64,000 bases of DNA from Myxococcota bacterium (lineage in GTDB: Bacteria; Myxococcota_A; SURF-8): contig OZ223209.1 in the NCBI GenBank assembly GCA_965140415.1, positions 4,096,001 to 4,160,000 of the forward strand, given 5' to 3'. Shown here one piece after another: positions 1-28,853 of the stretch (position 1 is its first letter; every line of letters starts with the position of its first letter). A program made the translations under genes and the position numbers. The notes below the pieces were generated by a model. That model was not told the origin of the DNA. It was given only the letters and a program-made list of their open reading frames with translations, and did not search any database.

Positions 1-2832
1 CTCCTGATATTTTTCTTTCTCTGAGACTGATGCTCTTTCCCAACCCGGAGACTTTGTTAAATCGTCGGGAAAGCTATTGTGGGGAGGTGATTCTGAAGAT
101 TCTCTTTCCAACTCAAAAGAAATATTCTGCCAAAGTTCGATGCGACCTTTTTCTTCGATGGCTTCAATGCATTTTTGGATATGATCTTGAGGATCATGCC
201 ACTGTGATCGTTGATTCTGCCATTTTTTCCTCTCTGCTTCCAATCGTTGTTTTTGCCTCTCAATTTCTTCTGGGCTAAACGAATGGAAAATTGGTTCAAG
301 AATCGAATCCCCCTTAAGGGAATTATAGAATTGATGCTTGATTGTTTCTGAGAAGCCGGAGAAGCAGTATCTAATTATTTCACCCAGATGTTTCTTGCTC
401 TCATCGTTTTCTATAGATTGCAGAATCGAGATGGCCCAATCAACATCGTCTTCAGAGATCGGAAAATCGCTAATGCCAAACAAATCATGACTGGAAAGCG
501 TAATACGTTCTGCCAATAGCAAGAATAATTTCCTTCGTATTGACTTCTCCGAAACCAGTTTTTGTTGAATTTCTCTACTTTGCCTGAGATCGTATGGATT
601 ATTTGATTGGATACGCTCCACGAGTACGTCTGACAGTTTCGTAGCAATGATATCATCATCAAGATGGTCCAGACTTCGAAGAACAATATCTTCCGGCAAA
701 TTCCAGAATGGTCCCATGTGCCATCCTTGAACTATACGTATCCAGTGGAGGGCCAGTGACAGATCGGATTTCGATAAATTATTGGGCAGTCCTTTGAGGA
801 AGCTATAATAGCTTCCGAAGAACATATACTCCTTGGGATTTGTAAGAAGCACAAATAGCTCTTCGGTAGTTATGTGAGCCGGCCAAAGGCATGCCAAGCC
901 ATGACCTTTGAGTTGATCCTTTGGATCTGAACCTGCCAACCCTTCTGCAAGGGGGTGAAGTTTTAATTGATGGGCTTCGTTACCGATCCGCTTTACCGAA
1001 GAGGCTGCCATATCGCGGACGACATCTGGCTCGCCTTGATCCAGAGCCATACGTACCAGTTCATCTTGTATTTCATTCGAGTCGCATCTGCATTGTCGGA
1101 TCATCTGCAAAGCAATGCGACGAATCATAATGTCTTCGGATTGGTTCAAAACGATTGGCAATAGGTATTCCCAAAGTGCAGGAAATGATAAATGCGAGAA
1201 ATTTACCTCGTAGTCAGGGTAAGGTATGGTCTTGTTTCTATAAGCATTTACTAAACCAAGAATGGCTTTTTCTTTTATTTGCTCAGTTAGGGAGTCTGAA
1301 CTAATTGCCAAAAAGACCTCTGGATTTCTATCCTGAATTATCTGTAGTATTTCAGAAGAATACCTGATAAGCCAGCCAGTCACCTCATGAAGCTGGGGTA
1401 ACACCTTTCCGCTTGGGTTAAATAATAAAGGAATTATCTGTTCCGCAGAGATTTTCGTTTCTTGGCAGTACTGGGCTGTAAGGTATTCTTTGATATTATG
1501 AACAGACCATTCTAAACGAGTTGCACCTAGACTTGAAAAAAACGGAGTGTCGAATATTTCTTGATAGTGATCAAATCCTGCTTGGAATTCAGCCCATTCC
1601 TCGATTTGTATAAGCTCAGTAAGAAGCATATCGGAATTAACTGATTGGCTTTTATCAGAATCAATGAAAACGGTATTCTTTCCAGAAAACAACATCAAAG
1701 CAGCTATTTTCGATAGTTCATTCTTTCGCTTTTCAGGAGAGATTCTTCCAAGTAACCTTCTGCTTTTCCTACTAGGATTTGATTCTTGGCAGTATATCAG
1801 GATCTGACTTTCAAACAATTCTTCACGCTTTTCTGGAATTGCCCCATGTTGTTTATAATACCTTAGTAGCGAATTGAGCTTAAAGGGAGTATTCGCAAAT
1901 ATTGTTGCGTTTTTATTATAGATTTCGCCAACAAACGCATCGGAATCCAAACCTTCCCTTAAGGCTGCTTCGATAACATTTTTGTGTTGAAGTGGTGCTA
2001 ATTTAAATAATTCATACTCATCTTTAGTAAATAGCGGTTTTAGTCTTGCTTCAAAGTATTGGGGCCAAGCAGCAGATCTGCAAGCAAGTCTAACTTTGAG
2101 TCTATTCCAGTCAGTATTTGTCCTTGTCAATCCTTCAACAATAACTTGCGCAGCTGTTTGTACGTCGATAAGACATTCATCTAAACTGTCAATAAACAAA
2201 CACAAGTTATGAGTGCCTGTCACCCAATTCTGAAATATCGGGTTTTTGAATAACTCTTCTCTAAGTTCTAACCCGCTACCAATTGAGTTTAAATCCTTAA
2301 ATAATACTTGGTCACCGTTAGCCTCATACTCAAGACTGAGGCGTTCAAATTCTTGTTTCAAGGTCGTTGACTTACCAATTCCTGGTTCCCCAAGCAAACC
2401 GAGGAAACGGTAAGATTCAATCTCTTTCAATAACTTAGCGGTATTGCTATACTCATTGAATTCACCCAAGTCTGGTAAGAATCCGTTGAACTTAATAATT
2501 CCGATACTAAGAGCTTCTGTCGCGATCCGACTCGGAATCCAATATCTATTCCAATTGTACTTTGGAAAAGAATTTTGGGTTGAAACACTTGATGTTACCT
2601 CAAGTGTTTGATTTTCTGAGACCTCCTCAGCACTTTCATGTATGAGTTCAGTTGAAGATATTTTCATCACGGACAAAGCACTTTTAATCAACCATCGGGA
2701 TATGGCGTAAAGAAATCCCAAAATACCAACAAGGCCAGCCATTAGACCGACCCATTCTGCAGGTTTATCTACTCCATCTGAAAGCCAAGAATATACGGGT
2801 TTGATAAAAATCAAAAACTTCTCAAGCATCAT
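1..2832 (-). CDS. Large STAND/NACHT-type P-loop NTPase (Avs/NLR-like) with N-terminal TM helix; 3' end lies outside the window (>=944 aa)
   Basis: Not in the ORF track; translated by hand from ATG at 2832 (ATGA overlap with the upstream gene). Reads MMLEKFL..WVGLMAGLVGILGFLYAISRWLI (TM)..YNWNRYWIP..FLGLLGEPGIGKSTTL (Walker A, ~2368-2391)..LCLFIDSLDEC (Walker B)..RLACRSAAWP..LAPL, then a long helical region. Frame appears open to position 1. AT-rich. Confidence 0.85.
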   Translation of the reverse strand, partial: MMLEKFLIFIKPVYSWLSDGVDKPAEWVGLMAGLVGILGFLYAISRWLIKSALSVMKISSTELIHESAEEVSENQTLEVTSSVSTQNSFPKYNWNRYWIPSRIATEALSIGIIKFNGFLPDLGEFNEYSNTAKLLKEIESYRFLGLLGEPGIGKSTTLKQEFERLSLEYEANGDQVLFKDLNSIGSGLELREELFKNPIFQNWVTGTHNLCLFIDSLDECLIDVQTAAQVIVEGLTRTNTDWNRLKVRLACRSAAWPQYFEARLKPLFTKDEYELFKLAPLQHKNVIEAALREGLDSDAFVGEIYNKNATIFANTPFKLNSLLRYYKQHGAIPEKREELFESQILIYCQESNPSRKSRRLLGRISPEKRKNELSKIAALMLFSGKNTVFIDSDKSQSVNSDMLLTELIQIEEWAEFQAGFDHYQEIFDTPFFSSLGATRLEWSVHNIKEYLTAQYCQETKISAEQIIPLLFNPSGKVLPQLHEVTGWLIRYSSEILQIIQDRNPEVFLAISSDSLTEQIKEKAILGLVNAYRNKTIPYPDYEVNFSHLSFPALWEYLLPIVLNQSEDIMIRRIALQMIRQCRCDSNEIQDELVRMALDQGEPDVVRDMAASSVKRIGNEAHQLKLHPLAEGLAGSDPKDQLKGHGLACLWPAHITTEELFVLLTNPKEYMFFGSYYSFLKGLPNNLSKSDLSLALHWIRIVQGWHMGPFWNLPEDIVLRSLDHLDDDIIATKLSDVLVERIQSNNPYDLRQSREIQQKLVSEKSIRRKLFLLLAERITLSSHDLFGISDFPISEDDVDWAISILQSIENDESKKHLGEIIRYCFSGFSETIKHQFYNSLKGDSILEPIFHSFSPEEIERQKQRLEAERKKWQNQRSQWHDPQDHIQKCIEAIEEKGRIELWQNISFELERESSESPPHNSFPDDLTKSPGWERASVSEKEKYQE

Positions 2833-5800
2833 CCCCTCCCCACCGGCATCCGGGGCGGGGCAGTCTTCCACATCAGGTCGATTTCCTCGGGGGTGAGGCC
2901 ATAGGCCTGGTTGACGAGGTCGGCCAGGCGGCGTTCGTGCTGTTGGGCTTCGGCGGCGCGGCGCTGCATGGCGGGGACGATCTCCTCGTAGGCCTCGCGC
3001 AGCTCCTTCACGCCACTCACGCTCAGCTTGCCTGCCGCTTTGGGGCGGCGCTTCTTCACTTCGGCCATGAAGGCGTCGAAGTCCAGAGCGGCGGCGTCTT
3101 GCAGCTTTAGGCCCGGTTTGTCGATGGACTGGATCTGCTTCAGCCAGTCGAGCAGATCGCGCTGGGCGCTTTGGTTGGCGCGGGTCAGTTCGATCAGCGC
3201 CGCCACGCGCTCCTCAGCCTCGGTGCGTATGGTTTCGGTGGGCGGAGCGATGGGGAGTTTCTTGACGTATGGGATGTCCATCGCCAAAGCTTCGTCTTTT
3301 TTGTGTGGGAAGTATCGGAACGAATAGTACCAGTTTGCTGGCGAGTTCATAACTGCCAATACCCAAAAATCGACTTTGGGAATCATGATCGCTGCATCAT
3401 TGATAAGAACATTGTTGTCATCAAAAGAAATGCGCGAATGGAAGGCTATCCTCTGTATCACCATTTTAGGTTTGTAAAATAGTTCCCAATAATCAACTGG
3501 ATCTTGGATTTCATTCCATTTGTACAGGCCAGGTTTTCTTCCCGGCCAAGTTCCCTGTTTCTTTGCATCCCAATCCTTTGGACGTGGTTCCAATCTCTCT
3601 TGGAACTGGAGAAGGTGTTGCTTTACTGCTTGATAGTGATCGATTTCAACTCCATGCCGCGCAAAGATCATCCAAAGTCCAGCCCATTCAGGATGCCATC
3701 TCTTAATGTCCTGACCACGCAAGTAAGGTTTCACTATTTCTTCTGACCTTGGATCTTCTTTTAGCAAATCGTTACGTGTTGGCGTATCAATGAGGAATGC
3801 TTCGTTTAAGCCTGTCTTGATTCCGTAGCATGGGTTTGTATTGATAAATTTGGCAAGTGGTACGCCATTTCCTTTAATCTTTGCCATCAAATCTACGACC
3901 GCCGGGTGCTCAAGACTCCACGCCTTTTCCGAAAACCGCGACCAGGGCACCTCGTAACCATGCTGGCGAACGAACTGCTTGAGGTTGATGTCTGCCAGTT
4001 TCTCACGAGGCACGGGACAGATGACCACCGGCGCGGTTGGCTCGGGTTGGGAAGGTGGATCGGGTAGTTGCTCGCCCCGGTCGTGTTCCGCTAGCTTTTT
4101 AATGAGACCGTGGTAGTGGTGCAATACTTTCCCCGCAGCATCACGTACAGTCGGGCGACGCACCGACACGATGCAAGGGAAGACGTCGGCGTCCTCGAAG
4201 ATGGGCGCGTGGCCGAAGTCGAGGATCTGCTCGAAGACCGTATGTTCGGCGAAAAAACGCCGCAGCGCCTCGCCGTAACCGGACTTCAACCACTTGTTCG
4301 TCACGATGAACGACAGCACGCCGCCCGGCTTCAAGGCCTGCACGCCGCGCTCGTAGAAATAGGTGTACAGATCCGCCACGCCGTCGAAGGAATGGTAATG
4401 CTCCTTCAGATACGGCTTGATCGGCGATAGCAGTTCCTGGCGAACGTAAGGCGGGTTGCCGATCACCACATCGAAACCGCCATCATCAAAGACATTCTTA
4501 AAGCGCTCTTGCCAATCGAATGGAGTCTCCGAATAGGCTGCATCGTCCACGATGGAGTCACCCTGCTGGATGTTGTCGTCCAGGAAGGTCAACGGCTTGC
4601 CGCGCTCGGCGGTCTTCAGCCACAGGCTGAGCTTGGTGATCTCCACCGACTCCTTCGAGAGATCCACGCCGTAAAGGTTGTGGTTGAGGATGGTCTTGTT
4701 CAGGTCGAACAGGCTGCGCTGCCCGCCCTCGAAGGCCGCCAGGGCGTCGTTGACGCGCTCGTACTGCGCCAGCAGGTAATCGAAGGCCGCGATCAGAAAC
4801 GCGCCGGAGCCGCAGGCCGGATCCAGCACGCGGGTGCGCTTCAGCACCTCGTCGCGGTAGGCCTCCCAGAACTCGTGCTCGGCCTTGGCCAGCTTGCGCC
4901 CGTGCGCCTCGGGGATGGCATCCAGTCCGATGCGCTGGCGAAGCTCCTCCTCCTTGCGCCGCAGATAACCGCCCAGCGCCACATCCACGATGTACTGCGT
5001 CACCATTGCGGGCGTGTAGTAAACGCCCTGGGTCTTGCGACGGCCCTTCTTCTTGTCGAAGTCCTCACCAGACGCGGCGGCTTTCAGTTCCTCCAGGTCG
5101 GTGACCGACTGCTCGAAGATGTGGCCCAGCACCTCGACCGATACGTCCGTGTCGAAATCGTAGCGCGTGATGGCGTTCAACTCGTCGCACAACTCATCCG
5201 GCAGGCTGATCTGCTCGTCGATGACCGGATCGGGCTTGAACAGCCCGCCGTTGTAACCGGGGATGGGCGGGTTGTCGTTGCCCTTGTCCACCCAGCGGAA
5301 GACCGCCTTGTAGCGCGTCCAGACGGCGGTCGGATTGTAGGGATCCTTGTAGTCGTGCGCGGTCTTGATCGTGTTCGGCGGCAAGAGCCCGCGATCCTCG
5401 CAAAAGGCGATGAACAGCACGCGGTCGAGGATCTTCTGCGCCGTCTCGATCATGGCGGCCTTGTCGCCGTCGGTCTGCTCGGTCAGGTATTGCACCAGCT
5501 TGAGGCGCGTGTCCTTGTACTCGGCGTAAAGCGCCTTGGTGATGGCCTCCTCGGCGTTGTCGGACTCGCGCAGGAGCGCATCCACGCGGGAGTCTCCATC
5601 CTGCTTGGCTTCCAGCGGCAGGAAGTTCTCGGTACAGAGCAGGAAGAAGAAACGCCGGAAGACGGCATCGTCGGCAAGATCGGCCAGCTTGAAGCGTTCA
5701 TAGAAGGCGGGTGTCTTGCTGGTGCGGTAGAGGCGGATCTCTCGATAGTTGCTAACCAGCACCCACTTGCAGCCCTCGGTGTAGTTGGCGTAGCGCCAGC

Positions 5801-6239
5801 CCTGCTCAACGGCGGATTCCGTGCGCCCGGAGGCGGGACGGTCCAGGTTGTTGACCGCGCCCTTCAGTTCGATCGGCGCGACGATGCGACCCTTCAGGCG
5901 CGTGGCCTTGCTGGCGGATTCGGTGGCGGTGAAGAAACCCAGCGCGCCATCAGCCGAGCCGCCGCCATCGGAGATATGCGCCTCGGCATGCAGCGTCCAG
6001 GCTTCGCCTTCGCCCTGGATGACGGAGCGGTAGCCCAGCACCTCGCCAAAGATGTCGCGCAGAAACTCGCCGTGCAGCGAGACTTCCTTGATGACGTCCA
6101 GCGTCCCACGCTCCAGCGAGGTGATCCAGCGCGCCACCACGGCCCGGCGGGCGTCCATATCGGACGGAAAGGCAAAGCCCGCCATCGCTTTGGCGAGCGT
6201 CTTTTCATGAAACAAGGGTTTGACGTGACCTGTGGGCAT
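2829..6239 (-). CDS. Type IIG/Eco57I-like fused restriction endonuclease / N6-adenine methyltransferase with TaqI-C-like target recognition domain
   Basis: N-terminal PD-(D/E)xK-like SADGALG..PIELKG; GVYYTP; motif I VLDPACGSGAFL; motif IV VIGNPPYVRQE; C-terminal YGIKTGLNEAF..PYLRGQDIKRW. Confidence 0.9.
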   Translation of the reverse strand: MPTGHVKPLFHEKTLAKAMAGFAFPSDMDARRAVVARWITSLERGTLDVIKEVSLHGEFLRDIFGEVLGYRSVIQGEGEAWTLHAEAHISDGGGSADGALGFFTATESASKATRLKGRIVAPIELKGAVNNLDRPASGRTESAVEQGWRYANYTEGCKWVLVSNYREIRLYRTSKTPAFYERFKLADLADDAVFRRFFFLLCTENFLPLEAKQDGDSRVDALLRESDNAEEAITKALYAEYKDTRLKLVQYLTEQTDGDKAAMIETAQKILDRVLFIAFCEDRGLLPPNTIKTAHDYKDPYNPTAVWTRYKAVFRWVDKGNDNPPIPGYNGGLFKPDPVIDEQISLPDELCDELNAITRYDFDTDVSVEVLGHIFEQSVTDLEELKAAASGEDFDKKKGRRKTQGVYYTPAMVTQYIVDVALGGYLRRKEEELRQRIGLDAIPEAHGRKLAKAEHEFWEAYRDEVLKRTRVLDPACGSGAFLIAAFDYLLAQYERVNDALAAFEGGQRSLFDLNKTILNHNLYGVDLSKESVEITKLSLWLKTAERGKPLTFLDDNIQQGDSIVDDAAYSETPFDWQERFKNVFDDGGFDVVIGNPPYVRQELLSPIKPYLKEHYHSFDGVADLYTYFYERGVQALKPGGVLSFIVTNKWLKSGYGEALRRFFAEHTVFEQILDFGHAPIFEDADVFPCIVSVRRPTVRDAAGKVLHHYHGLIKKLAEHDRGEQLPDPPSQPEPTAPVVICPVPREKLADINLKQFVRQHGYEVPWSRFSEKAWSLEHPAVVDLMAKIKGNGVPLAKFINTNPCYGIKTGLNEAFLIDTPTRNDLLKEDPRSEEIVKPYLRGQDIKRWHPEWAGLWMIFARHGVEIDHYQAVKQHLLQFQERLEPRPKDWDAKKQGTWPGRKPGLYKWNEIQDPVDYWELFYKPKMVIQRIAFHSRISFDDNNVLINDAAIMIPKVDFWVLAVMNSPANWYYSFRYFPHKKDEALAMDIPYVKKLPIAPPTETIRTEAEERVAALIELTRANQSAQRDLLDWLKQIQSIDKPGLKLQDAAALDFDAFMAEVKKRRPKAAGKLSVSGVKELREAYEEIVPAMQRRAAEAQQHERRLADLVNQAYGLTPEEIDLMWKTAPPRMPVGRG

Positions 6240-6520
6240 CCGCTACCTGCTTGAAAGAAAATATCCCAATCAAAACCAACGCTTGCAATATCGTCTACGG
6301 TGAATCGCCCCTGGCTGCTGCTTCCGAATCAGTAGGCAAGTTTATAGCATTTATGGGGCAAAGGCGGAAAGGAATTTATGTGGAGTTATCGAGGGGATAG
6401 GTGATCAACGAAGGGGTGTGACTTACTCTGGCACACAGCTTTGCTGCTATTCTTAAATAGACAATCGGCTTGTCCTGGCATAGGATACGAAACGAAAACA
6501 TTTATAATGGGAGAACGGAT

Positions 6521-6736
6521 ATGAAAGTAAACCATCCAATTTTGGGCAAAGTCAAGCAATTTGATAGAACCCCTTTGCCAGAGAAACTTTCTGGCTGTTC
6601 TTTCGACACCAAAGCGGGGTTCTGGCGTTTCGAGAGTGATGGAAGTTGCATGATGAGGTCAAATGATCCATCAAGACCGGTCTGCGGAACCAAAAAGAAA
6701 GACATTGAAACAGGTGAAGATGAAAAAGGCGAATAA
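6521..6736 (+). CDS. Putative graspetide (ATP-grasp RiPP) precursor peptide, 71 aa
   Basis: ATG 6521 after GGGAGA. C-terminal core CGTKKKDIETGEDEKGE has Thr/Lys donors and Asp/Glu acceptors. TAATG coupling to the ATP-grasp gene. Confidence 0.8.
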   Translation: MKVNHPILGKVKQFDRTPLPEKLSGCSFDTKAGFWRFESDGSCMMRSNDPSRPVCGTKKKDIETGEDEKGE

Positions 6737-7692
6737 TGGATGTTCTTTCTCCTGAGATTCTCTTAATCTCAAATACTCACGATTATTCCAGTGACTTGGT
6801 CGCAGCTGAGCTTCATACTCGAAAAGCAAAATACCTTCGCTTAAATCGCGATAAATTCAACAAAATGGAACTGATCTTATTCCCTTCTACCCCACTTATC
6901 AAGGGGCGATGGGAAGATATTGATTTCCAAGTAAGTGCGGATGTATTGAAATCCATCTATTTTCGGGCTCCGGTATTCCTGCGGGATAATTATCAGCCTG
7001 ATCTGCTTCCAGAAGAACAATTGGCGAGGGGACAATGGGCTGCTTTTCTTCGAGCTTTGACAATCTTTGAAGATGCCACTTGGGTTAATCATCCCATGTA
7101 CACGTACCAAGCTGAGGTAAAGGCTTATCAACTCAGAATCGCTCAGAAAGTGGGGTTTAGCGTTCCAGAAAGCATTGCGACCAATTTCCCCAAACCCTAT
7201 GCGAGTAACAGGGACTGGATCGTAAAAACGATGGAGCCAATAATCCTGAGATTTGATAGCAAAGAAGGATTTATATATACGAACTCTGTCGATAGCGAAG
7301 AACTTGAGAACGGTGACTACTCTTCAGCTCCTGTCATGATTCAGGAAAGAATTGAGCCGAAAGTTGATGTCAGAGTTACAATTATCGGCGAGAAACTCTT
7401 TCCTGTTTCCATCAAGAAAAATGGTTCTGGGATTGAGGGAGATTGGCGTCTGCAGAAAAACGATGTAGTCTATACTCCCATTGGCCTGCCAAAGGATGTT
7501 CGGAATATGATTCACGAATTGATGAATAGATTGAATCTCACCTTCGGTGGAATGGATCTTCTGTTGCAGGATAACAAGTATTATTTTCTGGAGGTAAACC
7601 CAACAGGTGAATGGGGATGGTTGATGGATAACACGGGAGCGCCGATAGACAAGGCAATTTGTGATTATTTGATGGGAAATTCCAATGTATAA
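6736..7692 (+). CDS. MvdC/MvdD-like ATP-grasp peptide macrocyclase (graspetide synthetase)
   Basis: ILLISNTHDYSSD, SIYFRAP, WVNHP, KAYQLRIAQKVGFSVPESIATN, QERIEPKVDVRVT, DWR, FGGMD, YFLEVNPTGEWGWL. Confidence 0.88.
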   Translation: MDVLSPEILLISNTHDYSSDLVAAELHTRKAKYLRLNRDKFNKMELILFPSTPLIKGRWEDIDFQVSADVLKSIYFRAPVFLRDNYQPDLLPEEQLARGQWAAFLRALTIFEDATWVNHPMYTYQAEVKAYQLRIAQKVGFSVPESIATNFPKPYASNRDWIVKTMEPIILRFDSKEGFIYTNSVDSEELENGDYSSAPVMIQERIEPKVDVRVTIIGEKLFPVSIKKNGSGIEGDWRLQKNDVVYTPIGLPKDVRNMIHELMNRLNLTFGGMDLLLQDNKYYFLEVNPTGEWGWLMDNTGAPIDKAICDYLMGNSNV

Positions 7693-8293
7693 CTATTTTG
7701 GAAATGCTTGGAATTGGATACTTCAGGAAATCGTGCCGATATTGTACGCATATAGAGTGGAGAAAATACTCCTTACCAAGCACGAGAATATTCACGTTTC
7801 TTCGTACTCTATCGAGGAATTGACAGATTATTCGGAGTTATCTCAATTTATACAGGGACAACTCTCATTAGAAGATGAACGACGAAAAACAATCGATGAG
7901 AAGGCTAAATCTTCATTGGTTTCCATCACAGTTGTAATCGCCGTAATGCTGGCTCTGCTTAAAGACGGGGCCAGCGTAGGCCTCCCCTTTGGGATTTTAA
8001 TAATGCTTGCCATTTTGTGCTTTTTGTTTGCAGTTATCGGAGCGGTTAAAGCAATCGAAAACTTGCCATACGCCCAAGTTACCGTTGAGGATCTGATCAA
8101 GGAAAATGGTTCTTCGCTGGAGCACAAGAAGATTTGCGAGAAGGATATGTTATTGGAATTTTACAAATACTACAAAGCCAACTCTGTATTAAACAATAAC
8201 AAAGGAAACTTTGTTGATTCGTCTTTCAAATCCATCAGGAACGGGGTCATTCTCCTGTGTGCCGCCATTGTTTTGACAATGCTTTTGCCTTAA
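7685..8293 (+). CDS. Hypothetical membrane protein (about 3 TM), overlapping the ATP-grasp gene
   Basis: 8-bp overlap. Helix EDERRKTIDEKAK precedes two hydrophobic segments, and there is a terminal hydrophobic segment (GVILLCAAIVLTMLLP). Confidence 0.75.
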   Translation: MYNYFGNAWNWILQEIVPILYAYRVEKILLTKHENIHVSSYSIEELTDYSELSQFIQGQLSLEDERRKTIDEKAKSSLVSITVVIAVMLALLKDGASVGLPFGILIMLAILCFLFAVIGAVKAIENLPYAQVTVEDLIKENGSSLEHKKICEKDMLLEFYKYYKANSVLNNNKGNFVDSSFKSIRNGVILLCAAIVLTMLLP

Positions 8294-8308: not shown

Positions 8309-8647
8309 CTACCCCACCTCCTCCAACACCCGTTTCACCACCTCGACAATCATTTTCTGGTGGGCTTTCTTTGCCGGGCGCAGGAGTTCCCGCATCTCGG
8401 CCATGTGGGGATAGGTTCGGGCCTTGAAGTCCTCGTCAGCAATGTCGAACAGCACAGCCATCTCGACATCGATGGCCTGCGCGATCTCGTAGAATTTCTC
8501 CACCGACGGGATCGAATGCCCACGCTCCAGGCGGCTGATGGTTTCCACCGCCACATTGACTTTCTCGGCTAACTTTTCCTGAGTAAGCCCCGCGTCCTTG
8601 CGGAATCGCCTGACACGATCTCCCAGTATTTTCTTGATATCCGGCAT
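8309..8647 (-). CDS. XRE-family HTH transcriptional regulator (controller-protein-like)
   Basis: MPDIKKILGDRVRRFRKDAGLTQEKLAEKVNVAVETISRLERG; AGGAGG RBS before ATG 8647 (the ORF-track start at 8830 is too long). Confidence 0.88.
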   Translation of the reverse strand: MPDIKKILGDRVRRFRKDAGLTQEKLAEKVNVAVETISRLERGHSIPSVEKFYEIAQAIDVEMAVLFDIADEDFKARTYPHMAEMRELLRPAKKAHQKMIVEVVKRVLEEVG

Positions 8648-8917
8648 TGCGCCTCCTGTTTCTATTGAATGTCGCCGATCGGCGAGCGAATGAACAGGAG
8701 GCGATATGATTGATATTTTCATATTATAGGCGTATAGTGTTGTCTCGTTGGATAAACTTGATGGTCTTGGTCGGATAAAAGCCGGAAAACGGACTGGAAC
8801 GCCTACCGTTGCAACGAAAAACACGGCCACATTGTCGATGAGAAAAACACCCGAGTTTCGGGGATAAGAATTCTAAGGAACTGAATTTACATAGGATACA
8901 AGAAAAGGAGGGATGCG

Positions 8918-11543: not shown

Positions 11544-12266
11544 CTACTCGACAATCAAGCCGAAAGCCGAACAGTCCACCGCGATCTTGCGCGGGAGTGA
11601 CTGCCCCAGCGCGTGCTTCTTCACCAGGATGGCCACCAGCGCGCCGGTGAGCATACTGTTGTAAATCACCGCCCGCGCCGTGCAAGGCAGTTGCATCGAC
11701 TCTTCCGCCGGATGCAGGGTCTCCTCGTAGACCTGCGCGCCCATCAGGTCGCCGTGGGATTTGGCGGTGTAGATCACGATGTACTCGCCGCCCTGGCGCG
11801 GGTCGATGACTGTGATGGGCCGGGCGCGGCTACCCTGGGCTTTGGCCTGTTCCCAGATCGTCCGGCGCGCGTCCATGTTGTCCACGCAGGAGATGACCAG
11901 ACGCTTGGATTCGTCGCGGCCAAGGAGTTGATCGCTGTAGTGCTCACGGAACTGACCGGGCAGCAGGCCGGTGACGCGGTAGACCTCAACGCCCAGCGCC
12001 ACGGCCTTGGGCTGGCCCAGATACTCTGCGCCGAACAATTGATTGGGCTGGTTGTGCGGCTCGACCGTGTCGTCGTCGTAGATGTTGATGTCCGTGCAGC
12101 CCATCTTGGCAAGCGCCAGCGCTGTATAGCTGCCAGATGCTCCAGCGCCGATGATGGTGATGGGGAAGTCCAGCTTGTCGGGATGGATGATGTCGAGCTG
12201 GCGGTGGAATAGGTTGTCGAGGGTCGTGCGGTCCATGTCGTTTCGATCCATTGGAGTTCCTTTCAT
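11544..12266 (-). CDS. ThiF/E1-like adenylyltransferase
   Basis: FHRQLDII, IIGAGASGS, DDDTVEPHNQPNQLF, PKAVAL, VISCVDNMDAR, IDPR, LPC; ATGA overlap with the upstream gene. Confidence 0.88.
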   Translation of the reverse strand: MKGTPMDRNDMDRTTLDNLFHRQLDIIHPDKLDFPITIIGAGASGSYTALALAKMGCTDINIYDDDTVEPHNQPNQLFGAEYLGQPKAVALGVEVYRVTGLLPGQFREHYSDQLLGRDESKRLVISCVDNMDARRTIWEQAKAQGSRARPITVIDPRQGGEYIVIYTAKSHGDLMGAQVYEETLHPAEESMQLPCTARAVIYNSMLTGALVAILVKKHALGQSLPRKIAVDCSAFGLIVE

Positions 12267-12709: not shown

Positions 12710-12930
12710 GTCAGCCTGCTATTTGTCTTATGTCATTTTCCATTTGGAATTTGCCAAACAATCAATTTCCGATTTTCATTGTAAAGTCAGTCAGATAGAG
12801 TATGCTAAGAGTAGGATGTAATCGATAGTTTCGCTGTAGCTTGAGCTTTTGTTTACGGGTCGTAAATAATAGCAGTCGGCGATGTTGGCCAGGAGCGTTT
12901 AGCACCGCTCCGCAAAGGACAGGTGCGCAA

Positions 12931-15705
12931 ATGGCCAGAAAGAATAAGACGGTTCGGAAAAGCGTAAAGACGAAAAAGTCGAAAGACGCTTCCACAGCCA
13001 ATACGAAGACAGAACGATCTTCCAAAACAGCACTCCTTAAAGCCCCTAAAGACAAACCTGAAAGCTCACGCAGGAACACCTCCAAAACTTCCCGTTCAAA
13101 AGCGTCCGCCCTTCGCACCAAAGAAAACAATAACACCCACGGCGATTCCCACTCCTTCCCTATCGTCGGCATTGGCGCATCGGCCGGAGGATTGGAGGCC
13201 CTGGAGCAGTTTTTGGGCGGCGTGCCGAAAGATTGTGGGATGGCCTTCGTCATCGTGCAGCATCTGGATCCCGACCACAAGGGCATCATGCCCGAACTTT
13301 TGCAGCGCATCACGAAAATGAAGGTGCGCCAAGTCAAGGACCGCATGCCGGTGGAGCCGGATTGTGTGTACGTCATCCCGCCAAACAAGGATCTGTCCAT
13401 TCTGCACAGTACTCTATATTTGCTGGAGCCTACGGCCCGGCGCGGCCTGCGACTGCCGATCGATTTCTTTCTGCGCTCGCTGGCGGACGACCAGCATGGC
13501 AACAGCATCGGGGTGATCCTTTCCGGCATGGGCTCGGACGGCACCCTTGGTTTGCGGGCCATCAAGGAAAAGGCCGGACTGGCGCTTGCGCAGGAGCCGG
13601 GATCGGCCAAGTTCGACGGCATGCCGCACAGCGCGATCGAAGCCGGACTGGCCGATATTGTTGCTCCGGCCAACGAACTGCCGGGCAAGATCGTTGCCTA
13701 TCTGAAACACGCGCCATTGGTGAAAACCGGAGCGGCGACGGTCGTGGACGACAAGACCCGGAGCTCGCTGGACAAGGTCGTGATCCTGCTGCGGTCGCGG
13801 ACAGGCAACGATTTCTCGCTCTACAAGAAAAGTACGCTGTATCGCCGCATCGAGCGGCGCATGAGCATCCACCAGATCGGCAAAATCAACTTGTACGTCC
13901 GCTATCTCCGAGAAAACCCGAATGAACTGGATCTGCTGTTCAAGGAACTGCTGATCGGCGTGACGAATTTCTTCCGCGATGCGGATGTCTGGGAGAAGCT
14001 GAGAACGGAGATCATTCCGGCGCTCTTGAAAAACCGGCGCGCCGGACAGGCGCTTCGGGCCTGGGCGCCCGGCTGCTCGACGGGAGAGGAAGCCTACTCG
14101 CTGGCCATTGTGTTCAAGGAGGCGCTGGAAACACTCAAGGTTAAAAACGGCTTTTCCTTGCAGGTTTTCGCTACCGACCTGGACCCGGACGCCATCGACA
14201 GGGCCCGGGCGGGCGTTTTTCCCGTTAACATCACTGCCGACGTCTCGCCGGAACGGTTGGACCGCTTTTTCACGAAAGAAGAAGGTCGGTATCGGGTAAG
14301 CAAAGAGATCCGCGAAATGGTGATCTTCGCCCCGCAGAACGTGATCATGGACCCACCCTTCACCAAACTGGATATCCTCACCTGCCGCAACCTGCTGATC
14401 TATCTGAGCGCGGAGCTTCAGAAAAAGCTGTTGCCGCTGTTTCACTACAGCCTGAATCCCGGCGGCGTGCTGTTGCTTGGAAGTGCGGAGACCATCGGAA
14501 ACTTCACGGATCAGTTTGCGCCGCTGGATAGCCGGCTGAAGTTGTACCAGAGACGTGAAAGCGCACTGTCCGTCACGCCCATTGAATTCCCATCCATCTT
14601 TGCCGCTAAGCCGAAAACCGCAACGGAGAACGTCGCCATGAAGAAAACACCCTCCAATCTGGAGTCCCTGGCCGAACAGCTCATCCTGCAACGCTATTCT
14701 CCGGCCGCCGTGCTGGCGAACGCTCAGGGCGACATTCTGTACATCAGCACCCGGACGGGAAAATACCTGGAACCGGCCGTAGGCAAGGCCAACCTGAACA
14801 TCTTCGCCATGGCGCGTGAAGGTCTGCACCACGAGTTGTCCGGAGCCTTTGCCAAAGCACTCCGGCAAAAAGCAGAGGTCACGATCAGAAACCTGAAAGT
14901 GGGAACGAACGGCGGAACGCAGGCGGTGGATCTGACCATCCAGCCGCTTTCGTCGCCGGAGGCGTTGAACGGGATGGTATTGATTATTTTCTCTGACGTC
15001 GCATCGCTTCCGCAGCAGAAAAAGTCAGGGCACGCCAAATCTAAGCCGGTCGATGCCTCGCGGGTTGCGGAACTGGAGGAGGAGACGCAACGGCTGCGCG
15101 AGGAGTTGCACAGCACGCGCGAGGAGATGCAGAGCTCGCACGAAGAATTGAAATCGGCCAACGAGGAGCTGCAATCGACGAATGAGGAATTGCAGTCCAC
15201 CAACGAAGAATTGACCACCTCCAAAGAAGAGATGCAGTCGCTCAATGAAGAGTTGCAGACGGTCAACGCCGAATTGCAATCGAAGCTGGACGACCTTTCG
15301 CGGTCCAACAACGACATGACCAACCTGCTCAACAGCACGGAAATCGCCACGGTCTTTTTGGATGGCAAACTGAATGTACGGCGCTTCACCGAACCGGCGA
15401 CCAAAATCATCAAGCTGATTCCGGGCGATGTGGGGCGTCCGTTGAGCGATCTTGTCACTGACCTGAACTACACGGATTTGTCGGACGATGCTCACGAGGT
15501 GTTACGGACCCTTGTGTTTTCGGAAAAACAAGTCGCCACCAGCGACGGGCGCTGGTTTACGGTGCGCATCATGCCGTACCGCACGACGGAAAACGTCATC
15601 GACGGGCTGGTCATCACTTTCCTTGATATCAGCGCGGCGAAAGAACTTGAGACCAGACTGCGGCTGAAATCCTCACCAGGAACGGCGAAAGGGTCCAACG
15701 AATGA
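12931..15705 (+). CDS. CheB methylesterase / CheR methyltransferase fusion with coiled coil and PAS
   Basis: GIGASAGG, VQHL, GMGSDG (CheB); GVTNFFRD, GCSTGEEAYS, CRNLLIY (CheR); NEELQS repeats; C-terminal PAS. Confidence 0.93.
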   Translation: MARKNKTVRKSVKTKKSKDASTANTKTERSSKTALLKAPKDKPESSRRNTSKTSRSKASALRTKENNNTHGDSHSFPIVGIGASAGGLEALEQFLGGVPKDCGMAFVIVQHLDPDHKGIMPELLQRITKMKVRQVKDRMPVEPDCVYVIPPNKDLSILHSTLYLLEPTARRGLRLPIDFFLRSLADDQHGNSIGVILSGMGSDGTLGLRAIKEKAGLALAQEPGSAKFDGMPHSAIEAGLADIVAPANELPGKIVAYLKHAPLVKTGAATVVDDKTRSSLDKVVILLRSRTGNDFSLYKKSTLYRRIERRMSIHQIGKINLYVRYLRENPNELDLLFKELLIGVTNFFRDADVWEKLRTEIIPALLKNRRAGQALRAWAPGCSTGEEAYSLAIVFKEALETLKVKNGFSLQVFATDLDPDAIDRARAGVFPVNITADVSPERLDRFFTKEEGRYRVSKEIREMVIFAPQNVIMDPPFTKLDILTCRNLLIYLSAELQKKLLPLFHYSLNPGGVLLLGSAETIGNFTDQFAPLDSRLKLYQRRESALSVTPIEFPSIFAAKPKTATENVAMKKTPSNLESLAEQLILQRYSPAAVLANAQGDILYISTRTGKYLEPAVGKANLNIFAMAREGLHHELSGAFAKALRQKAEVTIRNLKVGTNGGTQAVDLTIQPLSSPEALNGMVLIIFSDVASLPQQKKSGHAKSKPVDASRVAELEEETQRLREELHSTREEMQSSHEELKSANEELQSTNEELQSTNEELTTSKEEMQSLNEELQTVNAELQSKLDDLSRSNNDMTNLLNSTEIATVFLDGKLNVRRFTEPATKIIKLIPGDVGRPLSDLVTDLNYTDLSDDAHEVLRTLVFSEKQVATSDGRWFTVRIMPYRTTENVIDGLVITFLDISAAKELETRLRLKSSPGTAKGSNE

Positions 15706-18700
15706 GCGACAAGAAAAAAGCTCCATCGGACCCTGCCGAACTTCGCCGCCGGGCGGTAGAGAAACTAAGCGAAAAGACAAGCGCCTCGACCCCATCGGAA
15801 GAAGCGGATGTCCGTAAGCTCCTCCATGAATTGCAGGTCCATCAGATCGAACTGGAGATGCAGAACGAGGAGCTTCATACGGCTCAACTTGAACTGGAAA
15901 CGTCCCGCGACCGCTATGCCGATCTCTACGATTTTGCGCCGGTGGGTTATTGCACGATCAATGCAGAGGGAATCATCCTGGAAGCCAATCTTACCGCCGC
16001 GACCATGCTGGGTGTGGTACGAAGCCAATTGGTCGGAAAACCGATCACTCGTTTCATCTTCAAGGACGAACAGGACATCTATTACCTTCACCGGAAAGAT
16101 CTGTTGGAAACCGGTGAACCGCATTCGAGCGAACTGCGGATGATAAAAAGCGATGGATCTGAATTCTGGGTAAACTTATCGGCCAGCGCTGAGCAGGACC
16201 CTGATGGCGTTGCCGGATGCCGCGTTGTAATGAGCGACATCACCAAACGCAAGCAGGCGGAAGAATTATTTCAAGTGCAATCGAAATTTCTGGAAACGCT
16301 GCTGGATAGCATACCCAGCCCGGTTTTTTATAAGGACATTGACGGGCGTTACCTCGGCTGCAACCGATCCTTTGAAGCCATTGTTGGAAGAAAACGGCAG
16401 GAAATCGTTGGTAAGACCGTGTACGAGGCCTGGCCGGATCGTTATGCCGATACTTACAGAGAAAAAGATCTGGAGTTGATAGAAAACCCGGGAAAGCAAC
16501 AGTACGAATCTCAGCTTCTCTCCGCCAACGGCGAGGAACGGGACACCATATTTTACAAATCCACTTTCGCCAATCTGGACGGTTCAGTGGGCGGGATCGT
16601 CGGGGTAATGCTGGATATCACCGAACGAAAACGGGCCGAGACGGAGGTGGCTAGGAGCGAGAAAAAATACAGGACATTGCTGGAGGCTGCATTTGACCTG
16701 ATCTATGTCATCGGTCGAGACGATACGGTTCTGTACGTCAACCCGGCTGGCTCTAAATTGCTGGGGAAACCGCCCGAAGAGATAATCAGCAAGCCGCGTG
16801 CGTCGTTTTTCCCGCCGGAGGTCGCCGCCAATCAGAAAATAGCGCTCGATCGGGTGTTCGCCAGTGGCGAGCCTTTTTACCGGGAACAGGAAAACCTTCA
16901 AAATGAGCATGTCCAGTGGCAGGAAACCCAGCTGATCCCTCTCAAAATTTCGGATGGGAGCGTGGAAAGCGTGCTTGGTATTTCACGGGACATCTCGGAG
17001 CGCAAGCAGGCTGAAGAACAATTCAGAACCATCTTCACTATGTCCCTGGACTTGATCTGCATCGCCAGCATCGAAACCAGTACATTCACCAAGATCAATC
17101 CTGCGTTTTCTCGATTGCTCGGCTACACGGAAGCCGAATTACTTGGAAAGCCGTTCTTGGAATTTATCCACCCGGATGATGTGGAGCCGACCCAAAGAGT
17201 TGTAGAAGAGCAACTCAGGGCCGGGAAAACCGTTTTACATTTCGAAAACCGCTATCGTACCGCCGGGGGAGATTATTGCTGGCTGGATTGGAACTCGCAC
17301 CCGAATGCAGAAAATGGCGTTACCTTCGCCATTGCTCGCAATATCACCGATAAAAAACGATCAGAGGAGCTTATCAAGCAATATCGACGCGAACTTGAAC
17401 TTACACTCGAAGCCACCACCGATGGCATCTGGAAGTGGAATTTCATCAATGACGAGTTGGAATTCAGCCCCCAGTATTACACCATGCTCGGCTATGAGCA
17501 GAATGAATTCCCGGCTGATTTCGAAAACTGGAAGGCGCTGATTCATCCGGACGATCTGAATGAAACACTAAGGGGCGCAGCGGAATATCTCAAAACTAAA
17601 GCCGATGTATATGATAATGAATTTCGAATGCGGACCAAATGTGGAGATTACCGTTGGATTCTGGCTCATGCCAAAGTTGTGGAGCGGGATAAAAACGGTG
17701 AAGCTGTCCGTATGATCGGGAATCATCAGGATGTAACCGAACGCAAACAGGCAGAGGAGGAGCTTAAAGCCGCAGAAGCACGGACAAGAAGCATTTTGAG
17801 TTCTATCGCGGATACTTTTTATTCTCTTGATAAGGAATGGCGGTTTGTTGCAGTCAACCCCGCCGCTGAAAAGGCTCCATTCGGGCGGCCGGCATCGGAA
17901 CTGCTCGGAAAAGTCATCTGGGATCTATACCCCGGTTTGGTCGACACTCCCATCCACCGGCGCTACCTTGACGCCAAAAACAATTCTTCCCTGGAGCATT
18001 ATGAGGCTCAATCTCCTTTGGACGGTCACTGGTATGAAGTATTCATGCAGGGATGGTCTGGCGGGGTTGACGTCTATATGCGCGACATCACCGAAAGGCG
18101 GCAATTTGAGGAATCATTGAGTGAAAGCCAACGGAGGCTGGACTTGGCTATCCGATCAATTGGAGCCGGAGTGTGGGATTGGGATGTGCTGAATAATCGC
18201 ATGATTTGGGATGAACGCATGCTGGAACTGTATGGCCTTCAGCCGGAAGCGTTTCCCGGAGGAGTCAAGGCATGGGAAAATGGACTCCACCCCGAAGATC
18301 GTGCTCGCGCCATCGCTGAATGTGAAAGCGCCTTGCGCGGAGAAAAGCCATTCAATACGGATTTTCGCATCAAAACCCCTGCCGGGGAGATACGGCATAT
18401 TAAAGCGGATGGAGCTGTTCTGCGTGATCAAGAAGGAACGGCTGTTCGTATGATTGGACTCAACCATGACATCACCGAGCGCAGACGAGCCGAAGAAGAG
18501 CGCAGCAGACTGGAAGACCAACTCCAGCAGGCCATGAAAATGGAAGCCGTGGGCCGCCTTGCGGGTGGCGTAGCCCATGACTTCAACAACCTGCTCACCA
18601 GCATCACTGGCAACGTTCAATTATCCCTGATGGATTTGAGTCCCGACGATCCGCTGGAAGGCGCACTGACCGAGATCGCCCAGGCGGCGGATAGCGCAGC

Positions 18701-19658
18701 GTCCTTGACGCGCCAGTTGCTGGCTTTTTCAAGAAAGCAGCTCATCGAACCGAAGGTGTTGAACCTGAATGAACTGATCGTTTCGCTGGAAAAGATGCTG
18801 CGACGGCTGATCGGAGAAGACATCGAACTGAAGACAATACCCGGAAAACGGCTCGGCTCGATAAAGGCCGATCCGGGGCAGCTTGAACAGATCCTCGTCA
18901 ATCTGGCCGTCAACGCTCGCGACGCCATGCCGGATGGGGGCAAACTGATCGTGGAGACGGCCAATGCCGAACTGGACGAAGAGTATTGTCGTCTCCACCC
19001 ACATTCCCGACCGGGCGCTTACGTCATGCTGGCAGTCAGCGACACCGGGACTGGAATGAGTGATGAGGTCAAATCCCACCTCTTCGAGCCTTTCTTCACC
19101 ACCAAACCGAAGGAGCGCGGAACCGGATTGGGGTTGGCCACCATTTACGGCGCAGTCAAGCAGGCGGGCGGCAGCGTGGAAGTCTATTCCGAGGAGGGGG
19201 AGGGCACGACCTTCAAGATATATCTGCCCCTTGTGGCGCAAAAGGCGGAGCGTCTACAAGCCGCCGCTCCCGCAATCGACATGCCGGGCGGAACGGAAAC
19301 TGTGCTGATCGTCGAAGATGAAAAGAGCGTGCGAGATATGGCGATCCGTATCTTGAAACGGCTCGGCTACAACGTCCTGCAGGCTCCAGACGGTGGGCAA
19401 GCCTTTATGCTGGCCGAGAAGTACACGGACAAGATCGACCTGTTGGTTACGGACGTGATTATGCCCGGCATGAACGGCAGGCAGCTTGCCGAACGGCTTA
19501 TTCAGATCCATCCGGAAATGAAGGTGCTGTATACCTCCGGCTATACGGAAAACGCCATCGCCCATCACGGAGTCATCGACGAAGGGCTGCAATTTATCGG
19601 CAAACCCTACACGCCACAGGCCTTGGCCAAAAAACTGCGGGATGTGTTGGAACGGTAA
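15702..19658 (+). CDS. Hybrid sensor histidine kinase with about 7 PAS domains, HisKA, HATPase and receiver
   Basis: Repeated PAS/PAC ending in DITxRK; H-box GVAHDFNNLL; NARDAM, DTGTGM, GTGLGL; receiver VEDE..TDVIMP..KP. Confidence 0.93.
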   Translation: MSDKKKAPSDPAELRRRAVEKLSEKTSASTPSEEADVRKLLHELQVHQIELEMQNEELHTAQLELETSRDRYADLYDFAPVGYCTINAEGIILEANLTAATMLGVVRSQLVGKPITRFIFKDEQDIYYLHRKDLLETGEPHSSELRMIKSDGSEFWVNLSASAEQDPDGVAGCRVVMSDITKRKQAEELFQVQSKFLETLLDSIPSPVFYKDIDGRYLGCNRSFEAIVGRKRQEIVGKTVYEAWPDRYADTYREKDLELIENPGKQQYESQLLSANGEERDTIFYKSTFANLDGSVGGIVGVMLDITERKRAETEVARSEKKYRTLLEAAFDLIYVIGRDDTVLYVNPAGSKLLGKPPEEIISKPRASFFPPEVAANQKIALDRVFASGEPFYREQENLQNEHVQWQETQLIPLKISDGSVESVLGISRDISERKQAEEQFRTIFTMSLDLICIASIETSTFTKINPAFSRLLGYTEAELLGKPFLEFIHPDDVEPTQRVVEEQLRAGKTVLHFENRYRTAGGDYCWLDWNSHPNAENGVTFAIARNITDKKRSEELIKQYRRELELTLEATTDGIWKWNFINDELEFSPQYYTMLGYEQNEFPADFENWKALIHPDDLNETLRGAAEYLKTKADVYDNEFRMRTKCGDYRWILAHAKVVERDKNGEAVRMIGNHQDVTERKQAEEELKAAEARTRSILSSIADTFYSLDKEWRFVAVNPAAEKAPFGRPASELLGKVIWDLYPGLVDTPIHRRYLDAKNNSSLEHYEAQSPLDGHWYEVFMQGWSGGVDVYMRDITERRQFEESLSESQRRLDLAIRSIGAGVWDWDVLNNRMIWDERMLELYGLQPEAFPGGVKAWENGLHPEDRARAIAECESALRGEKPFNTDFRIKTPAGEIRHIKADGAVLRDQEGTAVRMIGLNHDITERRRAEEERSRLEDQLQQAMKMEAVGRLAGGVAHDFNNLLTSITGNVQLSLMDLSPDDPLEGALTEIAQAADSAASLTRQLLAFSRKQLIEPKVLNLNELIVSLEKMLRRLIGEDIELKTIPGKRLGSIKADPGQLEQILVNLAVNARDAMPDGGKLIVETANAELDEEYCRLHPHSRPGAYVMLAVSDTGTGMSDEVKSHLFEPFFTTKPKERGTGLGLATIYGAVKQAGGSVEVYSEEGEGTTFKIYLPLVAQKAERLQAAAPAIDMPGGTETVLIVEDEKSVRDMAIRILKRLGYNVLQAPDGGQAFMLAEKYTDKIDLLVTDVIMPGMNGRQLAERLIQIHPEMKVLYTSGYTENAIAHHGVIDEGLQFIGKPYTPQALAKKLRDVLER

Positions 19659-28628: not shown

Positions 28629-28853
28629 AGGAGGCCCTCCGCTTGTAACCACACTGTATTTGTGGAACTTAACTACATGTGGTAATTTAGCATAAGGGCT
28701 ACAGTGATTCAAAAGAAAAACGGTGGGTATTACAGAGGCGGGGTTATGTTAAGTTTTTGTTATGTCAATACAATCCAACATTCTTTTTGCTTCCCCTAAT
28801 CCGCTTCCCTGGCGATCTCCCACCAGTGGCTGGAACCAAGCTCGAAGCTCGCA

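Follow-up and report, generated by a model that had tools for sequence, protein, structure and literature searches.

The window analysed here is a stretch of 64,000 nucleotides from a Myxococcota bacterium (assembly GCA_965140415.1, contig OZ223209.1, positions 4,096,001 to 4,160,000 of the forward strand). Positions 6521-8293 of its forward strand contain a cassette of three open reading frames (ORFs) that encode a small precursor peptide, an ATP-grasp ligase of the graspetide type and a membrane protein outside known families (Table 1). This three-gene arrangement is far beyond chance since 79-80 of 80 related loci show the same order, and we consider it almost certain that the cassette is a real graspetide cassette.

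Organisation and conservation of the cassette

The precursor and ligase genes meet in a TAATG junction with one base of overlap, and the ligase gene overlaps the gene of the membrane protein by eight bases (ATGTATAA). The content of guanine plus cytosine (GC) is 41.8% in the cassette as compared with 54.8% in the whole window and 55.8% in positions 9001-64000. For a sigma-70-like site at 6458-6486 the scan for promoters and terminators performed no better than on shuffled sequences (3 found, 4.6 expected). The initial annotation of this DNA had described three overlapping, AT-rich genes for a precursor, a ligase and a protein with about three transmembrane segments. The ORFs with their junctions, the family matches of the ligase and the base composition all agree with this description, and the predicted fold of the membrane protein shows three long helices with three hydrophobic stretches.

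Table 1. Features of the graspetide cassette and of its neighbours in the window (aa, amino acids).
Feature	Position	Strand	Description
Ribosome-binding-like motif GGAG	6510..6513	+	7 bases 5' of the precursor ATG, read from the sequence
Precursor peptide	6521..6736	+	71 aa, C-terminal end CGTKKKDIETGEDEKGE; leader-like N-terminal part with H5 (HxLL motif) and G33-x-W35
Predicted core	6689..6733	+	residues 57-71 (TKKKDIETGEDEKGE); tallies over 80 loci in the text
Graspetide-type ATP-grasp ligase	6736..7692	+	318 aa
Membrane partner	7685..8293	+	202 aa, three long helices, three hydrophobic spans; outside known families
XRE-type HTH protein, convergent neighbour	8309..8830	-	Pfam HTH_3 3e-16; PADLOC HTH_VI, capH and control-protein models
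Type IIG restriction-modification enzyme	2829..6239	-	PADLOC REase_MTase_IIG 2.8e-134; Pfam Eco57I 1.3e-47, MmeI and TaqI_C domains
NACHT/STAND NTPase, EruA/HyoA-like	1..2871	-	C-terminal about 957 aa, gene starting in the window; NCBIfam EruA 4e-43 and HyoA 3.6e-37, both below cut-offs

The ligase belongs to the clade of MvdC- and MvdD-like maturases of RiPPs (peptides made on the ribosome and modified after translation), as indicated both by NCBIfam models and by its relatives among solved structures of the PDB. Full-length matches are obtained with TIGR04187 (7.7e-60), MvdC TIGR04185 (2e-47) and MvdD TIGR04184 (2.4e-33), all of them below the curated cut-offs. With 202.7 bits at a curated cut-off of 350 the enzyme falls outside the GRASP_SAV_5884 subfamily defined by TIGR04187. 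The closest solved structures, with E-values spanning 2e-33 to 2e-22, include AMdnB (7m4s, 2e-33), CdnC (7mgv, 1.3e-27) and MdnB/MdnC (5ig8, 3.4e-25). A word-based protein search returned 671 related proteins at E<=1e-20. Invariant columns in 32 homologues include K164, K209, D274, E286 and N288, the last two of which we take to be the Mg-binding E-x-N pair.

A pattern scan with one genome per species yielded 369 confirmed loci, and the conservation counts refer to the best 80 of these 369. Directly upstream of the ligase all 80 loci have a homologous small ORF (about 68 amino acids) with the tail motif [ST]KKxDxETGEDxKG[E] as a single C-terminal core, so that what is typical of graspetides, a small adjoining precursor in which Thr/Ser/Lys donors and Asp/Glu acceptors are conserved, is found without exception. 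The tail consensus reads [TS]-K-K-x-D-x-E-T-G-E-D-x-K-G-E, in which the first [TS], both following K, D, E, G, the second E, the second D and the last K are each present in 80 loci and the inner T in 75. In an alignment of 60 precursors W35, K58, K59, D61, E63, G65, E66, D67 and K69 are invariant. The predicted donors of the core are T57, K58, K59 (K60), T64 and K69, and the predicted acceptors D61, E63, E66 and D67 (E68, E71); we infer cross-links among them from the enzyme family and from the passages on group 7 graspetides in PMC9576775. Beyond the tail the precursors keep a start of the type HxLLxKA..Y and a G-x-W motif (H5, G33, W35), whereas a double-glycine site and a signal-like segment are both absent from the alignment. 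The window precursor has no match in Pfam, NCBIfam, PADLOC or PHROGs. Ten of the 80 loci (L019, L023, L037, L042, L048, L056, L060, L061, L067 and L077) contain tandem precursor genes, two to three per locus with three in L037, which show the same invariant tail and diverged leaders.

Directly downstream of the ligase the same family of membrane proteins follows in 79 of the 80 loci, as revealed by profile iteration; in the remaining one, L076, frameshifts affect the genes on either side. Members of this family became accessible when a two-sequence profile was run against the full set of 1.84 billion representatives: 158 relatives were obtained at E<=1e-3, where the word-based search had given one. 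The window member has no match in Pfam, NCBIfam, PADLOC, PHROGs or families of solved structures. Its fold, predicted from an alignment of 90 rows with a mean predicted local distance difference test (pLDDT) of 95.8, consists of three long helices and a short hairpin; residues around 77-95, 100-124 and 186-202 form hydrophobic stretches. Two groups of residues are nearly invariant, R66 and K73 immediately ahead of the first membrane helix and N166, N175, R185, N186 and G187 immediately ahead of the last one. Given an N-terminus inside the cell, these polar and basic residues would lie on the cytoplasmic face. The conserved portion corresponds to the about 200 amino acids of the window protein; longer members extend past the last hydrophobic helix with tails that vary, and PKD domains are present in one member. 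In contrast with the invariant peptide core the membrane partner diverges fast, with a mean column identity of 16-18%, although a small number of polar residues is retained. Pfam matches among 90 and 73 members are scattered and weak, namely DUF2207_C in 10 and 16, Holin-X in 3 and 4 (best 8.6e-07) and SLATT_5 in 2 (0.054).

The partner family is tied to ATP-grasp cassettes. Five of five carrier genomes have one match each, and where 401 genomes sampled from a Bacillota order were searched, a ligase adjoins every one of the four strong matches. A fourth recurrent gene was not found, the largest cluster of neighbours being present in 4 of the 80 loci. Likewise the 138 flanking ORFs of 39 loci show no recurrent family of peptidases or transporters, and over 79 loci neither a leader peptidase nor a double-glycine site nor a gene of the ABC or MFS type recurs.

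Carriers of the cassette are found in Myxococcota, Methanobacteriota (Methanobrevibacter), Omnitrophota, Acidobacteriota, Chloroflexota (Dehalococcoidia, Anaerolineales), many Bacillota, Bacteroidota and Desulfobacterota, further in Alpha-, Beta- and Gammaproteobacteria, Actinomycetes, Gemmatimonadaceae, Binatia and others. Cultured strains with the cassette include Cohnella panacarvi Gsoil 349, Brevibacillus sp. TJ4, Cytobacillus firmus NBRC 15306, Vibrio hibernica B1.19 and Heliobacterium mobile DSM 6151. Among 61 related Myxococcota genomes that were searched the ligase is present in two, the window's own and one other. Mobile-element genes are common around the loci, with serine recombinases and tyrosine integrases as well as a MobL relaxase, conjugation genes and TniQ. 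In Rhizobium and Martelella the cassette is found on plasmids that are conjugative or mobilizable, next to integrase, SIR2/PIN, AbiE and UvrD genes, and there the Prokaryotic Genome Annotation Pipeline (PGAP) labels its first and third genes 'hypothetical protein' and its second 'RimK-like protein'. In viral contigs of IMG/VR the cassette is rare, with 5 confirmed loci. That the cassette constitutes a self-contained, horizontally mobile three-gene graspetide unit can be considered as shown or nearly shown.

Two individual copies deserve mention. In a genome assigned to another genus of the same family (L136, identical with L002; G030:C1:911107-912051) the ligase is 100% identical to that of the window, which reflects either a very recent transfer of the island or two metagenome-assembled genomes that are closer than their labels say. 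On the plasmid of Martelella sp. AD-3 the position of the membrane gene (L108:7927-8611) is annotated as two short ORFs of 420 and 240 bases, which suggests that the partner gene is broken in this copy.

Defence genes around the cassette

The flanks were represented, in 79 loci (L002, the twin of the window, was left out), by the first two ORFs on each side that reach 100 amino acids, in total 284 ORFs. A defence match is defined here as a match to a single hidden Markov model of PADLOC-DB 2.0.0 at E<=1e-10 and is not a system call. The control comprises 108 ORFs from 12-kb regions spread at even intervals over the window's own genome, with identical ORF calling, and represents this one genome only. 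Matches were obtained for 46 of 138 ORFs in L003-L041 (27 of 39 loci) and for 36 of 146 ORFs in L042-L081 (21 of 40 loci), together 82 of 284 ORFs (29%) at 48 of 79 loci, versus 5 of 108 ORFs (4.6%) in the control. The five control matches all concern generic models (cysteine desulfurase, radical-SAM protein, kinase, ABC-like ATPase and PDC-M21C). With an odds ratio of 8.4 (Fisher p 2.2e-8) against this one-genome control, defence genes are enriched beside the cassette across diverse genomes.

Several of these neighbours form whole or near-whole systems. They include ietAS (L008), Hachiman (L024), Gabija (L034, L046), Thoeris (L035), AbiE (L045), AbiL together with a Type IIG enzyme (L077), Avs4-like systems (L025, L028), PD-Lambda-1 (L061), Septu PtuA (L043, L073) and, at several loci, restriction-modification systems of types I, II and III. 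In L048 a CBASS with its own 2TM effector is a separate, adjacent system. The initial annotation had named two observations from genomes that would speak against it, homologous operons that usually lack the membrane gene and homologous operons that are not enriched near defence genes. As the membrane gene is present in 79 of 80 loci and defence genes are enriched, neither was seen.

In the window itself the Type IIG gene is divergent from the cassette, with a spacer of 281 bases. The adjoining NACHT/STAND gene also has a weak Pfam match to nSTAND_NTPase5, and its frame runs beyond the window, upstream, to L130:16399. PADLOC and NCBIfam matches thus support the Type IIG-like restriction-modification gene and the STAND NTPase that had been proposed as divergent neighbours. 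Equally, the reported absence of transporter, protease and tailoring genes holds for the window ORFs scanned, up to 28.7 kb. None of 79 loci showed a counterpart of the convergent XRE-type gene at up to 1.5 kb from the cassette in a single-sequence tblastn search, which is an insensitive test.

A gene for a large serine recombinase with Resolvase, Recombinase and Zn_ribbon_recom domains (L130:8090-9838, corresponding to G000:C1:4086090-4087838) is located about 8 kb upstream of the window, and between it and approximately window position 9000 the GC content is mostly 40-50%. The recombinase and this low-GC stretch suggest that the NACHT gene, the Type IIG enzyme and the graspetide cassette lie together in an island of about 17-20 kb. 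Near the NACHT gene the same stretch contains an ORF of 1216 amino acids that belongs to no Pfam family (L130:12703-16353, reverse strand) and a pentapeptide-repeat protein of 519 amino acids (L130:10187-11746, reverse strand), both of which may be additional island cargo.

Further downstream, a ThiF/E1-like protein of 240 amino acids (11544-12266, reverse strand; Pfam ThiF 2e-15) stands alone. PADLOC E1-E2 (Cap2-like) models match it in part, and so does NCBIfam '6A-MBL cap2_3' at 9e-12, which is far short of the cut-off. Either a remnant or a stand-alone adenylyltransferase may be encoded here. A CheB-CheR fusion with a C-terminal PAS_10 domain and a multi-PAS hybrid histidine kinase of 1318 amino acids follow on the forward strand (12841-19658); these are ordinary signalling genes that mark the return to core-genome composition. 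On the reverse strand an ORF of 1302 amino acids that lacks a Pfam or PADLOC family (24804-28712) adjoins a transposase of insertion-sequence type (HTH_32, rve_3; 23580-24659).

Possible function and competing explanations

Graspetides are usually regarded as secreted natural products, mostly protease inhibitors, and genome-mining surveys leave the small membrane partner unexplained. In the group described here this partner is obligatory, the core is frozen over two domains of life, and restriction, Gabija, Thoeris, Hachiman, CBASS and Abi genes are about six times more frequent in the vicinity than among control ORFs. We tentatively propose that the cassette is a conflict module of defence islands and thus a candidate immune unit, a functional reading that in its entirety appears quite possible but still short of probable.

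Apart from this functional reading, the ligase very probably recognises the conserved leader-like part of the 71-residue precursor and links side chains of its invariant tail [ST]KKxDxETGEDxKGE to one another, with esters at Thr/Ser and amides at Lys, into a product that is most likely tricyclic to judge from the group 7 relatives described in PMC9576775. In the proposed module the peptide would stay in the cytoplasm with its leader attached, and such a location is probable because neither a leader peptidase nor a double-glycine site nor an ATP-driven exporter belongs to the cassette. There, the acidic ring could act on the basic and polar juxtamembrane patch of the partner (R66, K73, N166, N175, R185, N186, G187). 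The membrane protein would be the executing part that causes membrane damage or growth arrest of the infected cell, and the ring peptide its putative keeper or trigger. The more specific idea that a ring-locked RiPP takes part in intracellular immunity, with a tricyclic acidic tail on its leader holding or triggering a new family of small membrane effectors, is somewhat more doubtful than the proposal as a whole.

Should the immune role be true, graspetide cassettes would turn out as widespread, overlooked modules against phages or mobile elements common to Bacteria and Archaea, and one effector family would be combined with at least two graspetide types, the single-core marinomonasin-like and the multi-core thuringinin-like ones. 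A post-translationally cyclised peptide would join the parts list of prokaryotic immunity and many orphan graspetide clusters would gain a role. If it is false, the cassette stays an ordinary representative of a RiPP group that is already catalogued.

A number of observations weigh against an immune role. None of the three cassette proteins matches any PADLOC family at E<=0.01, 31 of 79 loci show no PADLOC match within two genes, and some loci adjoin housekeeping genes (e.g. L013 and L036). PADLOC includes generic models for methyltransferases, helicases and HTH proteins, and the sample contains near-duplicate loci (L025/L028, L020/L027, L034/L046). Other mobile cargo also gathers in defence islands, so location alone is insufficient for a defence function. 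Likeness of the membrane protein to known effectors was not detected: Foldseek against PDB and BFVD gave nothing at E<=1e-3, profile comparison by hhalign gave probabilities of 2.4% (over 36 columns) and 0.85% with PycTM and of 0.19% with a CBASS 2TM effector, and VIA-align against 48,161 chains, which is uninformative for helical proteins, returned only generic long helical bundles (best Z 10.0, a trypanosome receptor). As for precedents, text searches found no paper linking this type of graspetide or ATP-grasp RiPP cassette to phage defence, and searching for the core string alongside 'grasp' gave no relevant text. The nearest topics, as far as the retrieved texts go, are grasp-with-SPASM clusters on integrative and conjugative elements of Porphyromonas and co-expression of ocean RiPPs.

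The main competing explanation is a secreted graspetide, e.g. a protease inhibitor, whose leader is cut by a host protease and whose membrane protein serves as exporter and/or self-immunity factor, with the islands acting as hot spots for cargo. In the part of the paper by Makarova et al. considered here (PMC8939145), all characterised graspetides are described as protease inhibitors, as they are in a preprint too, and peptide transport is proposed for the cassette-specific membrane proteins of cluster 18. The tandem precursor paralogues in 10 of 80 loci point in the same direction since natural-product clusters are often so organised, as does a multi-core thuringinin-like cassette with the same membrane family, and the variable tails past the last helix together with the PKD member would fit an exposed outside end. 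The lack of a recurrent leader peptidase, double-glycine site or ABC/MFS gene in 79 loci argues against export, and a three-helix protein of about 200 amino acids devoid of an energy-coupling domain would be an unlikely exporter of a highly charged peptide of 70 residues. Moreover, the invariance of the core over Bacteria and Archaea is unusual for a diversifying antagonistic peptide, and the enrichment of defence genes is strong. On balance we regard a secreted product as possible but somewhat less likely than the immune module.

A still less probable explanation is an addiction or competition module resembling toxin-antitoxin (TA) pairs, in which a toxic membrane protein is neutralised by the continuously made cross-linked peptide and the island or plasmid is stabilised in the absence of any phage sensing. 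The translational coupling and fixed order of the three genes would suit such a module, and so would the occurrence on plasmids, the adjoining recombinases, relaxases and conjugation genes, the proximity of other TA/Abi pairs such as AbiE and the rarity in viral contigs (the five IMG/VR loci). However, toxicity of the membrane protein is hypothetical, and an ATP-dependent modification with three rings would make a costly antitoxin. This explanation also overlaps with the proposed immune module since many TA modules act in phage defence as well.

That the membrane protein only anchors ligase and precursor at the membrane for efficient cross-linking, being neither effector nor transporter, is improbable: a membrane-protein scaffold for microviridin is reportedly named in the title of Weiz et al. 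2011, but the marinomonasin work is said to have used precursor and ligase, and the setting in defence islands would be left unexplained. Partner-dependent graspetide synthesis does exist in the case of rosaritide (MirB/MirC), according to the part of PMC13097080 consulted, whereas the group 7 peptide Gra-3 was modified three times in Escherichia coli after refactoring, inclusion of a membrane gene not being evident from the passages of PMC9576775.

Comparison with known systems

The Pycsar-type resemblance of the membrane protein, which the initial annotation had suggested, is not supported by profile comparison. The operon and the defence neighbourhood that it described stand, and gating or antagonism of the membrane protein by the peptide, which it also proposed, is purely conjectural. 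The likeness to PycTM proteins of Myxococcota is one of layout: about 200 amino acids with an N-terminal part of about 70, a D-x-K-A motif before a helical hairpin, a loop of about 60 residues and a last hydrophobic helix. In a language-model protein atlas the third-ranked cluster for the membrane protein (score 0.93) has 11% of members with PF18967. However, PycTM is not among the Pfam families listed for the 90 and 73 partner members, SLATT_5 appears in 2 of the 73 at E 0.054, and the hhalign comparisons given above are non-significant. The operon partners differ as well: in all 80 loci they are a precursor and a ligase of the ATP-grasp type, and not a nucleotide cyclase. We do not count the protein among the Pycsar or SLATT effectors.

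The maturases of microviridins and chryseoviridins (MdnB/MdnC, AMdnB, CdnC) are the best solved relatives of the ligase and share its chemistry, i.e. Thr/Ser esters and Lys amides onto Asp/Glu. In contrast with the microviridin clusters the window has one ligase instead of two and a different core, and there is no PFFARFL leader, acetyltransferase or ABC transporter. Membership in the microviridin family was rejected because of the single ligase, the other leader and the lack of acetyltransferase and ABC genes.

Features are also shared with cassettes of the thuringinin type (groups 3, 5 and 6). A thuringinin-like example is L116/L129, one of the four strong matches in the sample of the Bacillota order. 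This locus (L129:5157-7180, G421:C12) encodes a precursor of 110 amino acids with three KT.VERERDDE-like repeats, a ligase of 322 and a partner of 252 amino acids, which matches the profile of the window's partner family at 1.1e-16. Gene order, membrane family and a similar start of the leader are shared with the window cassette, so the same partner family serves also a multi-core thuringinin-like cassette. The window precursor has a single core instead of the tandem core repeats of group 3, and the L116/L129 ligase is only 28% identical to that of the window. The L129 partner also matches phrog_21292 (function unknown) at 1.2e-22, and therefore the partner family occurs in phage genomes. A cassette-specific 'uncharacterized membrane protein' (cluster 18) of thuringinin loci was described by Makarova et al. 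in 2022, who guessed at peptide transport as known transporters are lacking there, in the passages at hand (PMC8939145), and the shared partner is probably this protein.

The best agreement is found with group 7, which comprises marinomonasin of Marinomonas fungiae and Gra-3 of Bacillus sp. S66. In the passages by Ayikpoe et al. (PMC9576775) Gra-3 was obtained with a tryptic C-terminal fragment dehydrated three times, and the description of its relatives lists four acceptors, a contiguous run of four donors and one more conserved C-terminal Lys. Three dehydrations are given there for marinomonasin as well, and group 7 relatives lose these waters on co-expression with their ligase. These passages mention neither a constant membrane partner nor a setting in defence islands. 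As in group 7 there is a single ATP-grasp enzyme and a single C-terminal core, and the window tail GTKKKDIETGEDEKGE as well as the Bacillus-type tails …STKKHDVERGEDxK fit the published wording, since four acceptors, a contiguous run of donors and the extra C-terminal Lys are all found in the core, matched to the verbal description and not to a sequence. The cassette is most probably a member of group 7 (marinomonasin type), assigned by published description rather than by sequence, and because its core fits this catalogued and partly characterised group, the dehydration chemistry has probably been demonstrated already in relatives.

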